Source: Octopus sinensis
Taxonomy: Eukaryota
DNA length: 9,751 bases
Direction: 5' to 3'
Assembly (NCBI RefSeq): GCF_006345805.1
Contig: NW_021827853.1
Span: 1 to 9,751 of the forward strand
Numbering within the stretch: the first letter of the stretch is position 1; every line of letters starts with the position of its first letter. The position numbers were made by a program, and so were the translations under genes. Below, one piece after another: positions 3,889 to 8,052 of this stretch. The notes below the pieces were generated by a model that was not told where the DNA came from, ran no database searches, and saw nothing but the letters and a program-made list of their open reading frames with translations.

Positions 3889-4325
3889 AAGAAGCTTGAG
3901 TCGGTGAAACAGATGAGCTACTGGGAGACGCTACAGGAACTGAAGCTCTACTCCCTGGAAAGAAAGCGAAAAATGTATGTAGTGTTATACATATGGAATA
4001 TCCTGGAAGGTCAAGCTCCCAACTTTGGAATTAAAAACGATACCAGCCACCGAACTGTAGGGCACTGCATAACACCAACGATACTGCCTTCTTCATCACA
4101 GATATGGATCTATTATTGCAGCAGCTTGGCATTCAGTGGATGAAAGCTATTTAAAATCCTGCCAAGAAATTTACGTGGTCTGCAAGGTGTAGATGTGGAA
4201 ACGTTTAAAAAGCACATCACAGCAGCAGGCAGTTTCGTCCAACCCGTTTCTTCACCATGAGCAGTACCGAAAGGAGAACCTGAAACATTGAAAGGCGTTG
4301 CTCCAGCATGACTCCAGCCTCTTGT
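3889..4325 (+). pseudogene. 5'-truncated CR1/L2-group LINE 3' end (ORF2 C-terminus plus 3' tail)
   Basis: MSYWETLQELKLYSLERKRKMYVVLYIWNILEGQAPNFGI matches the SY.ERL..L.L.SLE.RR motif of CR1-group ORF2 C-termini; same frame continues past TGA (4141) as KLFKILPRNLRGLQGVDVETFKK (cf. LFN.LP...FK); tail at 4291-4319. Confidence 0.82.
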
Positions 4326-4385
4326 TTAAAAAAAAGTAAAATAATAAAAGAAAAAACTAAAAGTATATATATATATATATATATA

Positions 4386-4486
4386 CTTGATATATCGGTT
4401 CCATTCTAACAAAAACTGTCTGATGAACGGCAACGAGAAACTCAGAGTAACAGATTTTGTTGAATTTTCTGCTGCTTTAAATAAAG
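4386..4486 (+). mobile_element. Short Penelope-like pLTR/retrozyme-like fragment in (TA)n carrying a hammerhead ribozyme
   Basis: ~100-bp island between TA arrays; hammerhead at 4408-4461; AATAAA at 4480-4485. Confidence 0.62.
4408..4461 (+). ncRNA. Minimal type I hammerhead ribozyme motif, predicted cleavage 3' of GUA (after 4449)
   Basis: Stem I AACAAAAaCTGT (4408-4419)/ACAGaTTTTGTT (4450-4461), 11 of 12 pairs; CTGATGA 4420-4426; stem II a-CG-GCAA-CG-a; GAAA 4437-4440; quasi-palindromic stem III ACTC-A-GAGT; H17=A. Confidence 0.82.
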
Positions 4487-4561
4487 TATATATATATATA
4501 TATATATAAATACATACATACATATATATACATATATACATCTCTCTATCAATCTATCTAT

Positions 4562-4592
<31 letters not shown>

Positions 4593-4618
4593 CTATATAT
4601 ATATATATATATATATAT
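4487..4618. repeat. (TA)n/(TACA)n/(TCTA)n microsatellite
   Basis: Read directly; further TA tracts at ~4364-4385 and ~4813-4847. Confidence 0.95.
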
Positions 4619-4809
4619 GGGGGGAAGTTCACGAAAAAATAAAAGACGAAGACGGAGGAGTACAAAACAACCAGATGTATTAGTATAACGCTCAGGAATA
4701 GAGAAAGTCTTTTACATTTCGAGCCTACGCTCTTCTACAGAAAAGGACACAGAAAAAAACAAGGAGAGAAACAAGGAGAGAAAAAAATTTGTGTAGTGGC
4801 TACCGATCT

Positions 4810-4812
<3 letters not shown>
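4619..4812 (-). mobile_element. Short Penelope-like pLTR/retrozyme-like element in (TA)n, with variant hammerhead motif
   Basis: 194-bp island between TA arrays; motif at 4707-4748; internal tandem AAACAAGGAGAG x2 (~4757-4780); related by eye to 2447-2646. Confidence 0.6.
4707..4748 (-). ncRNA. Variant hammerhead-like motif (CUGUAGA core)
   Basis: Minus strand GTCCTTTT-CTGTAGA-A-GAGC-GTAG-GCTC-GAAA-TG-T-A-AAAGAC; stem II 4 bp, GAAA intact, GUA triplet, bulged stem I. Confidence 0.55.
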
Positions 4813-4849
<37 letters not shown>

Positions 4850-4879
4850 AGTAAATTCTCATACATTTTGCTCCATAGA

Positions 4880-6150
4880 AAGTACTGTACCCTCCAAATT
4901 TCATTTAAATGCTTTTGCAAAAACAATGGAGTTAAGCTTCGTCCTTACCATGGAGCTTGATACTATCCATAAATACTTGATGACTGATCTGTACCCCTTT
5001 TGCTTTAAATTCCATCCAGTTATCTATTTTCTCAAGAGCTACGTTAAATGAATCATGCATAAAACAAACAATAAATTAGCAACACTGTCTCCTAGAAAAA
5101 TCTTCATTCTTAGGTTCTTGCCTTATGATGTGAATTCTGTCTTCCTCATGCTTGTTCTCTAAATCTTCTGACGCTCTTAGAAATCGCAACATTTTGAAAC
5201 AGTCGATGATCCATGATTGTTATATAATGTCATAAGCCTGACGGTAATCTATCAAAGCCGTTGCTAAATTTGTCTTCATTTGTTTATAACCTTTCATCAC
5301 CATTTTATCTATGAACTGCTGGTCTTTATTCCCCCTGCAATACCGTTTACAATCCTGCTCAACAGAGGGATCATTCAGTTATTATCAAGAAATGTATATA
5401 TTTCATCATGTATTATTCCAAGGAGCAGCTACCAGATTAGTTAGAGACACGATATGGCTCTGCAGTCATCCACAGCATCTCTCTTGTGCTGCATTCTGTA
5501 AACACCGTGTCCTTCGTCCATTTATCCCTATGAGAGTATTTTCTGTTGACCTCTGCATTAAGCTATTCTCCTATTATTTTATAACACCCCGTAAGCTTCT
5601 TCATCCAATACCTCTGAACACAATCAGGTCCAGCTGCTTTCCAGTAACTGATCTTCATACTTGTCGCACATTTCTTTTCCCAATTCTAATTTCTTCCTGC
5701 TGTGTGCAAGAAATAATCTTCTACAAATTTTCTAGCCACTCACCTTATTATTCTGTTCTTCCTTACTCCATATTTCATTAAAAAAAACACAACTTTTCTC
5801 TGCATCTGATATAACCCTTTCTTATATGTTTTCCCGACATGTTTATTGACAGAATTTCTTCCGATCCAGTTGGAATAATCTATATTACCAATACTGCTTA
5901 TCTCTTTCATCATATCTTGTCATTTACTTTCTCTGTGCCAAAACACGCTATTTTAGTTCTTCTGTAACAACATTCAACCCTTTTCTGTCAATACCATACT
6001 TTTCTTCAGTCTGTCATATTTATAATCATTACTAAGTTCACGCTTTCTCTTTCTTTCCAATACCGATACATCAGCAACTAGCTTGACTCTATTAATATTC
6101 TTCTGTCATCGACGTTTACTCCCAAGTTTTCCGTAACTACTAGCGAACTT
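4880..6150 (-). pseudogene. Heavily decayed R4/Dong-like reverse transcriptase region
   Basis: Manual minus-strand translation, in order, with stops/frameshifts: KGLNVVTEELK*RVLA (~5985-5938), YWKAAGPDCVQRYWMKKL (~5647-5593), DDCRAISCL*LIW*LLLGII, CKRYCRGNKDQQFIDKMVMKGYKQMKTNLATALIDYRQAYDII (5351-5223), IFLGDSVANLLFVLCMIHL, ISHQVFMDSIKLHGK (catalytic FMDD decayed to FMDS, 4973-4962). Outer boundaries approximate. Confidence 0.9.
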
Positions 6151-6414
6151 GGTCTCTGTTATATTACTTGCTCATAATGCGTACCAGAATTTAATCAGCT
6201 CTCATTTTCTCTTGGTTCAGTTTTCTCTGAACCGTCATTTCAAATCACATACGTACATTATAAGCTTACAATTTACTTACTCCAATACCTTAATCATTAT
6301 TTTATTTTCATCCTAAGTCAACGCTCCACTGTATCTCTATTTATTTTATAAGCATATACATCAGTGTCACTAGAAATTCAATCGGCTCACAGTTCGAGTT
6401 AATTACTTTAAAAA

Positions 6415-6699: not shown

Positions 6700-6845
6700 T
6701 GACAATATTTCGTTCGTCATTATGAAGTTGGTTTTACATTTCATCCTTTCGCGATCGATGAAATAAATGGCAGTCGGGCACTGGGGTCGATGTAATCGAC
6801 TCCCAACTCCCTCCAAATTTAAGGTCTTGTGCCTATAGTAGAAAG

Positions 6846-7504: not shown

Positions 7505-7534
7505 TTTTATTATTATTATTATTATTATATTATT
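7470..7534. repeat. (TTA)n microsatellite
   Basis: Read directly. Confidence 0.96.
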
Positions 7535-8050
7535 CAGTAGTTTTATTTTTATAGCGTGGCTTTCACTTCACTACCGAGCGCAGCTCTGTGTGCCTTGGGT
7601 ATGTGCTGTGATTTGTTGTGATGCTCTGATGGTTATTGTATGGAAAGTGTTCTGCGTAGGATGTGTGCAGTGCCTAGTAGTGCAATTTTCTGTATGTTAT
7701 ATGTGTTGTAAGTCCTGGTGTTTTTGTTATGTATTTGTCTGAATATTTTTTTATCATGCCTAATGCACCTACTATGATAGGAATTGTTTCTGTTTTCAGG
7801 TTCCACATTCTAGTTACCTCTATTTCCAGGTCTTTGTATTTTGAGAGTTCTCCATTTCTTTTAGAGACACGTTGTCATCTGCCGGTATTGATACATCAAT
7901 TAAAAAGCATTTTTTTTCTTCATGATCTCTGACAACTATATCTGGTCTGTTGGCCTTAATTTCTCTATCTGTGTGTATCGGCATATCCCAGAGTATGGTT
8001 GTATCGGCATATCCCAGAGTATGGTTGTATCGGCAAATCCCAGAGTATGG

Positions 8051-8052
<2 letters not shown>
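7535..8052 (-). mobile_element. 5'-truncated R4/Dong-like retrotransposon 3' end: PD-(D/E)xK-type RLE domain plus ~100-nt 3' UTR
   Basis: Minus strand, bridging two 1-nt deletions (~7848, ~7706): TILWDMPIHTDREIKANRPDIVVRDHEEKKCFLIDVSIPADDNVSLKEME(K)LSKYKDLEIEVTRMWNLKTETIPIIVGALGMIKKYSDKYITKTPGLT(N)TYNIQKIALLGTAHILRRTLSIQ*; PD at 7945-7940, stop at 7635-7633; UTR runs into (TAA)n. Confidence 0.93.
7975..8052. repeat. Three tandem 26-bp copies GTATCGGCATATCCCAGAGTATGGTT
   Basis: 7975-8000, 8001-8026, 8027-8052 (one T>A in the third). Confidence 0.97.

Follow-up and report, generated by a model that had tools for sequence, protein, structure and literature searches.

The window analyzed here, a 9,751-nt stretch of Octopus sinensis DNA (contig NW_021827853.1), is an entire small contig made up mostly of microsatellites and repeat fragments. 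Near its middle, between two (TA)n tracts, it carries a type I hammerhead ribozyme motif (positions 4408 to 4461) within a 100-nt segment (positions 4387 to 4486) that represents the 3′ end of an autonomous Penelope-like element (PLE), truncated on its 5′ side and lodged in (TA)n. The features of the locus are as follows.

4364 to 4385, no strand: (TA)n target tract, left flank (from the sequence)
4387 to 4486, plus strand: 5′-truncated 3′ (pLTR) end of a Hydra-clade PLE, lacking the optional tail (identical copies; ends elements with RT-endonuclease frames)
4408 to 4419, plus strand: 5′ arm of stem I (own hammerhead descriptor; proximal four pairs kept in tail-selected copies)
4420 to 4426, plus strand: catalytic core C3 to A9, CTGATGA (U4 canonical in the subfamily of the window, C4 in older ones)
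4427 to 4436, plus strand: stem II, with A10.1.A11.1 mismatch, two base pairs and GNRA loop (A11.1 being the subfamily state)
4437 to 4440, plus strand: core G12-A13-A14-A15.1, GAAA (descriptor)
4440 to 4448, plus strand: palindromic stem III with a free central base (predicted intermolecular helix of a dimer)
4449 to 4450, plus strand: predicted cleavage site after N17, A4449 (hammerhead numbering applied to the descriptor match)
4450 to 4461, plus strand: 3′ arm of stem I (descriptor; copy alignment)
4480 to 4486, plus strand: last bases of the element (AATAAAG), forming the nearer of its two insertion end-points, 37 nt past the cut site
4487 to 4618, no strand: (TA)n-rich target tract, right flank (from the sequence)

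Anatomy of the hammerhead motif

Our own hammerhead descriptor retrieved a single match when both strands of the window were scanned, and none of 1,000 dinucleotide shuffles of the window gave a match as good as that at positions 4408 to 4461, one giving a looser match. This confirms the hammerhead anatomy. The original prediction had described core elements in type I order with a GCAA-capped stem II, a stem I of 11 out of 12 bp extendable by ATTC/GAAT, and an AATAAA downstream, all between (TA)n tracts, and each of these was found where claimed. The core fits the pattern CUGANGA, GAAA, and UH in that order. Stem I pairs 11 of 12 positions of 4408 to 4419 with 4450 to 4461, leaving A4415 and A4454 unpaired, and is prolonged in the computed fold by pairing of 4403 to 4406 with 4462 to 4465. 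AATAAA lies at 4480 to 4485, and the flanking tracts occupy 4364 to 4385 and 4487 to 4618. A covariance-model search of the window against Rfam, a library of curated families only, returned no hammerhead family at an E value of ≤10, so that the hammerhead search proposed originally succeeded with the descriptor and failed with Rfam.

Three helices surround the core, with stem I open. Stem II consists of the pairs 4428-4435 and 4429-4434 (C-G and G-C) below the GCAA loop, with A4427 and A4436 outside; a stem II of two pairs is mildly unusual. Stem III is a palindrome (4440 to 4448) centered on A4444, a base that is A, C, or T depending on the subfamily, and is predicted to be stable only between two copies. 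The pair at 10.1-11.1, which is typical of type I hammerheads (usually as G-C) but not universal, is replaced by A.A in the window copy and is present in 13 of 50 copies selected by their tail.

The parent element

A DNA search with positions 4386 to 4486 gave 1,161 candidates in the 2.72-Gb genome, and among the 40 of these that were scored, 14 other places were 100% identical over 100 nt of 4387 to 4486. The exact 30-nt hammerhead core occurs 2,705 times in the genome, and a 15-nt anchor taken from the beginning of the tail, common to the older subfamilies too, occurs 6,870 times. In longer copies, the hammerhead is preceded by a 3′ untranslated region (UTR) of ∼1.1 kb and, upstream of that, by an RT-endonuclease frame. 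The full-length layout comprises a hammerhead pLTR, a 727-codon RT-endonuclease frame, and a second hammerhead pLTR, about 3.35 kb in all. At 5 of 13 long loci (L086, L088, L089, L090, and L091), two direct hammerhead pLTRs lying 3,325 to 3,368 nt apart flank an open frame of 727 to 766 codons, and an inverted truncated copy precedes several of them. The first methionine lies 176 nt past the cut site (L086, 3784 to 3960). The partial tandems, the inverted 5′-truncated copy, and the optional tail of PLEs are all present, and insertion into (TA)n is seen in the element flanks. The proposed PLE origin is borne out, since intact RT-endonuclease frames have this motif on either side in their pLTRs; the description of the window copy as a solo cassette is not, because the segment does not form an independent unit and derives from an autonomous element of which it is the truncated 3′ end.

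Copies have two end-points, stopping in (TA)n either directly past 4486 or past a tail. The tail measures ∼72 nt at L086 (3822 to 3893); PLE tails of 30 to 40 bp are given in PMC8557442. Copy ends thus lie 37 or about 109 nt beyond the cut site, reading through it. The AATAAA hexamer is the element end at one of the two end-points. A role for it as poly(A) signal is without support, because copies end in (TA)n rather than poly(A), and in 5′ pLTRs the hexamer continues into the tail and ORF. Assembled contigs of eight runs of unrecorded type cover the pLTR, although these contigs do not resolve ends, strand, or level. Young copies often adjoin older-subfamily copies in the same (TA)n tracts (L023, 1622 to 1723 and 2277; L086, 2283; L008, 812). 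The hammerhead copy of the window has no same-family partner within the window, and with no known promoter either, it is probably an inert by-product.

The element protein was modeled from an alignment (pLDDT of 89.7), and the best PDB match of the model is telomerase RT, with an E value of 4e-9; a single-sequence model was set aside (pLDDT of 35). The protein carries YRDD and a VY..YTG motif. It gave no Pfam match and nothing useful in the PDB by sequence, and P0002, which is 43% identical to it, passes the Pfam cutoff for GIY-YIG. A telomerase-like RT followed by a GIY-YIG-type endonuclease is thus encoded in one ORF, as in PLEs. Among the long frames, RWK is found in eight of eight and DKT in five of eight by regular expression, plus L092 by eye, with EKT in L086 and DMT in L087. 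CxxC and CxH are present in nine of nine frames, and CCHH is absent by eye. In the CxCX5C linker, the second cysteine is retained in 7 of 20 copies (L066 to L085; L086 to L093) and is phenylalanine in 13 of 20, including most intact long frames. RWK, DKT, CxxC, CxH, the absence of CCHH, CxCX5C, and (TA)n targets are marks of the Hydra clade according to section 11 of PMC8557442. The element is assigned to that clade by its RWK, DKT, CxxC, and CxH motifs and its (TA)n targets.

A series of subfamilies

Among cores that do not otherwise differ, 2,705 of 2,775 have A at position 4436, 49 have G, 16 have T, and 5 have C, and A is also present next to intact frames. The A.A mismatch is therefore the state of the subfamily and no defect of the window copy, contrary to the earlier suggestion that it weakens this copy in particular; the “repaired” T is carried by the 16. 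The mismatch may nevertheless lower activity across the whole family. U at 11.1 is found in 1,794 copies, of which 136 have U4 and 1,658 have C4, and C4 with A11.1 is found in 51.

To survey subfamilies without a choice based on the core, the first 90 tail-anchored places on contig C1 were taken, 57 of which reach back to 4416. Position 11.1 in these 57 rows is A in 29, U in 14, G in 11, and C in 2, with one gap. Within-class differences over 4420 to 4477 amount to 1.0% for A (28 rows), 1.7% for G (12 rows), 2.9% for U with A in loop III (6 rows), and 15% for U with C or U in loop III (11 rows, a mixed group). Dropped from this count were L213 (the partner of L212), the inversion-junction misalignments L241, L221, and L195, and rows beginning after 4420. 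The likely order of forms is C4/A-U, then C4/A.G, then U4/A.A. The U4/A.A subfamily of the window is thus likely the youngest, with a core more canonical than those of its forerunners.

Two simpler readings of these counts were discarded. The idea of a trade-off, in which each subfamily bears exactly one weakening change, C4 or A.A, had arisen from the core-based counts (U4/A, at least 2,705; C4/A, 51; U4/U, 136; C4/U, 1,658). It was rejected because the tail-selected copies show a subfamily with both C4 and the A.G mismatch (11 of 12 G11.1 rows have C4), which the earlier core-based patterns had left out. Nor do the 16 copies with a fully canonical core represent a source subfamily: 13 bear the 4454 marker of an older subfamily, and 3 are point variants of the young one. 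For 5 of the 16, the inverted partner is still C4.

Within 4416 to 4453, subfamilies are distinguished by changes at N7, at the free base of the stem II GNRA loop, at 11.1, at the center of stem III, and at position 4, with changes at 0 of 18 stem positions. A post hoc Fisher test on these few events, judged by eye, gives a P value of 0.004, or 0.02 with 10.1/11.1 classed as constrained. In tail-selected copies, the proximal four pairs of stem I are kept in 48 of 50, 50 of 50, 47 of 49, and 49 of 49, and those of stem III in 48 to 50 of 49 to 50. In the covariation test proposed originally, none of the stems in these copies shows two-sided covariation. Conservation of the 3′ flank is similar to that of the ribozyme.

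In one older subfamily, all 10 nt of stem II match exactly the loop capping the long stem II of Penelope-2_NV, as given in File S2 of PMC8557442. This identity may be due to chance, or may hint that a formerly longer stem II has been reduced to its tip.

Predicted folding and cleavage

As a monomer, the 81-nt region folds no better than shuffles (z score of −0.73). The predicted minimum of the 54-nt monomer (−10.2 kcal/mol) is a misfold in which the core pairs with stem III, and the active fold lies 4.7 kcal/mol above it, with a predicted ensemble share of ∼7e-5. The original statement that stem III cannot close a 1-nt loop stands as regards the palindrome and its central A4444; three pairs with a CAG loop could close it, at that small monomer share. 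In the homodimer, the cofold minimum of the 54-nt motif is exactly a double hammerhead (−22.6 versus 2 × −10.2 kcal/mol, a gain of 2.2), and that of the 81-nt region is a double hammerhead too, in agreement with the earlier view that the palindromic stem III suits a dimer. The cofold minimum of the 100-nt cassette is not a double hammerhead; its 5′ ends pair, and both cores are misfolded. When the stem III bases were shuffled, 19 of 200 such sequences also passed a looser test for the double-hammerhead fold. For six of seven older-subfamily copies, the predicted dimer keeps the intermolecular stem III and traps C3-C4-G5.

These folds are consistent with a scheme in which the monomer would misfold and two pLTR copies would pair as a double hammerhead through the arms of stem III, so that a cut after A4449 would need two paired copies. 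Each of the two hammerheads in a pLTR-ORF-pLTR transcript could supply halves to the other. By analogy with other PLEs (PMC4209133 and PMC11167929), activity would be low and may require the protein that the element encodes, and the reverse-transcribed RNA would be mostly uncut at the downstream hammerhead. The latter agrees with copy ends that read through the site by 37 or about 109 nt, which suggest a template uncut there.

A fossil of cleavage, in the form of copies beginning at the cut site, was looked for as well. Eight of 90 alignments seemed to start at 4447 to 4452, but 6 of these 8 are fold-back inversion junctions that fall in the self-complementary stem I. In the genome, 4 copies start at the cut site versus 61 at one control site with the same junction letters. 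This is best read as no excess rather than as avoidance, as there was a single control and very short insertions may be disfavored. Together with the read-through ends, the few starts at the site suggest that the copied RNA was mostly intact or rejoined there.

Other repeats in the window

A second hammerhead-like cassette lies at 2447 to 2646 on the minus strand, also between (TA)n tracts, and belongs to a different repeat family with 3,585 candidates. It shows CTGATGA, an extra A, a four-pair stem II closed by G-C, GAAA, and a two-base palindrome, and its N17 base is apparently G. The window copy has G instead of A13, a change absent from the other 11 loci, and a search of 12 loci with the Hydra protein did not reveal a parent ORF. 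A third cassette (4619 to 4812, minus strand; 2,441 candidates) lies 133 nt away from the 4387 to 4486 feature. Its core reads CTGTAGA in 12 of 12 loci, with U replacing A6, alongside a four-pair stem II and a short stem I; it is possibly a family-wide variant or a dead core of another PLE clade.

An open frame at 3889 to 4140 on the plus strand, without a Pfam match, resembles the C terminus of a reverse transcriptase, presumably from a LINE of the CR1/L2 type. Broken frame pieces adjoining (TTA)n arrays at ∼4850 to 6280, 7529 to 8052, and 8620 to 8840 on the minus strand, with the end piece present twice, presumably derive from an R4/Dong-type retrotransposon with a restriction-like endonuclease. 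Fragments at ∼60 to 200, 1730 to 1860, 6765 to 6845, and 8916 to 9290 are, by eye, presumably SINE-like repeats.

Discussion

The reading that we favor, with moderate confidence, is that a young, high-copy-number Hydra-clade PLE carries the motif as the hammerhead of its pLTR and that this is a weak, dimer-dependent predicted ribozyme that would cut after A4449. Weak cleavage, only as multimers or dimers, is described for metazoan PLE hammerheads in PMC4209133, which also reports a highly conserved G10.1-C11.1 pair that is absent in the window motif. According to PMC3088659, U.U at 10.1-11.1 supports more activity than any other mismatch (section 8), so that A.A is expected to be worse than U.U. 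Nothing relevant on rates with mismatches at 10.1-11.1 was found in the literature. The same text reports that a C4 core lowers activity considerably in vitro, and it counts against a ribozyme that the C4-core older subfamilies were still amplified to at least 1,658 copies.

This last point bears on an alternative that we regard as possible but rather unlikely, namely, that the origin is the same and the motif is no longer catalytic in this lineage, serving as an RNA or DNA handle (for protein binding, the start of reverse transcription, or a promoter) or traveling as a passenger of the pLTR. Amplification of the family continued as positions 4 and 11.1 drifted via noncanonical states, copies read through the cut site, and the C-to-T changes seen at positions 4 and 7, being of the CpG type, need no selection. 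For the PLE hammerhead of the anole, PMC11167929 further reports that catalytic mutants leave insertion in vitro unaffected, cleavage being dispensable for it, and that RNA ends were not detected at its site. A mere handle or passenger is, however, at odds with C3, G5, A6, G8, A9, G12 to A15.1, U16.1, and the stem III arms being unchanged in every subfamily, with the two stem II CpGs being kept in all subfamilies though decaying in single copies (e.g., G4435A in 9 of 57), and with the core and stem III being common to coral and Hydra families.

Cleavage by the monomer, with a three-pair stem III and CAG loop held by a chaperone such as the element protein or by the flanks and with the palindrome incidental, appears improbable. 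Although three pairs with a 3-nt loop are sterically possible and the anole ribozyme needs protein (PMC11167929), the active monomer lies far above the misfold in predicted energy. Moreover, 48 of 49 copies retain the fourth palindromic pair (4443/4445), which would not help a monomer, even though subfamilies differ in the central base. A stand-alone nonautonomous cassette or retrozyme unit, as the mere 100 nt of the window copy, alone between (TA)n tracts, and the many other short copies might suggest, is largely refuted and very improbable, since the 5′ ends of the 90 tail-selected copies are scattered, with longer ones reaching the 3′ UTR and ORF, and the window holds no short-unit tandem array, tandem units being what defines retrozymes in 10.64898/2026.07.22.740005. 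A non-LTR retrozyme would consist of short noncoding units in tandem, each bearing a hammerhead, whereas the segment in the window is one truncated end.

Within the favored reading of a dimer-dependent pLTR hammerhead, a further proposal is tentative and, on balance, doubtful: the U4/A.A form, that of the youngest and most successful subfamily, may have regained the canonical core and lost the predicted core-trapping misfold, so that the lineage would preserve a dated hammerhead series whose youngest form would cleave as a dimer better than its forerunners. If true, few natural hammerheads would have a stem II as small as this one, and the series would provide a direct test of selection on PLE hammerhead catalysis.

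Earlier publications already cover PLE pLTR hammerheads, their dimeric design, and (TA)n-inserted elements of the Hydra clade. This octopus family, or a study of octopus hammerheads beyond Hydra-1_Obim, was not found in the literature searched, although the family may already be recorded in Repbase/Dfam, the alignments of Lunse et al. 2017, or bioRxiv supplements. The practical value is modest and consists of a Hydra-clade family with thousands of copies, intact frames, and ∼1% divergence among young copies. For the question of the role of PLE hammerheads, the family offers matched natural ribozyme variants together with the cognate protein.

Comparison with known hammerheads and PLEs

The known pLTR hammerheads with a G10.1-C11.1 consensus share with the octopus motif the palindromic stem III, the predominance of solo truncated copies with some inverted pairs, and the dimer model. 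In their consensus, stem II is longer, A9 is followed by one more base, and the G10.1-C11.1 pair is present, whereas the window motif has a very short stem II without a G-C closing pair and a long stem I.

The PAc Poseidon element of the anole (Frangieh et al. 2024, PMC11167929) likewise carries its hammerhead near the pLTR-ORF junction and has two insertion end-points defining a tail and AT-rich targets. It belongs to another clade, and its ORF starts inside the hammerhead, unlike the octopus ORF with its first methionine well past the cut site. The activity of the PAc hammerhead has been shown, whereas cleavage by the octopus motif is predicted.

The closest likeness is to the Hydra-clade families of Craig et al. 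2021 (PMC8557442, File S2). These families share (TA)n targets and protein motifs with the octopus family, and their hammerheads (above all those of Hydra-2_aMil and Penelope-3_HM) are of type I, lie near the 3′ end, and have a four-pair palindromic stem III with one central base, as here. In Hydra-2_aMil, the proximal stem I, the stem III arms, and the cleavage triplet are the same as in the window motif. By our own count in File S2, 10.1-11.1 is unpaired in 15 of the 25 published Hydra-clade hammerheads (14 U.U and 1 U.C). The A.A closing mismatch of the window motif and the C4 core of the older octopus subfamilies are each found in 0 of these 25, all of which also have a longer stem II than the two pairs of the window motif. 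The octopus element is larger, with a unit of ∼3.35 kb versus <3 kb for most families listed and a tail roughly twice as long as is usual there. Hydra-1_Obim belongs to the same clade, with a (TA)n target and a protein that is, by eye and over the stretch compared, clearly homologous. It has another hammerhead sequence, with a seven-pair stem II, and a length of 2,507 bp, and no pLTR is reported for it in that paper. The different hammerhead and length indicate that the octopus element forms a family separate from Hydra-1_Obim.
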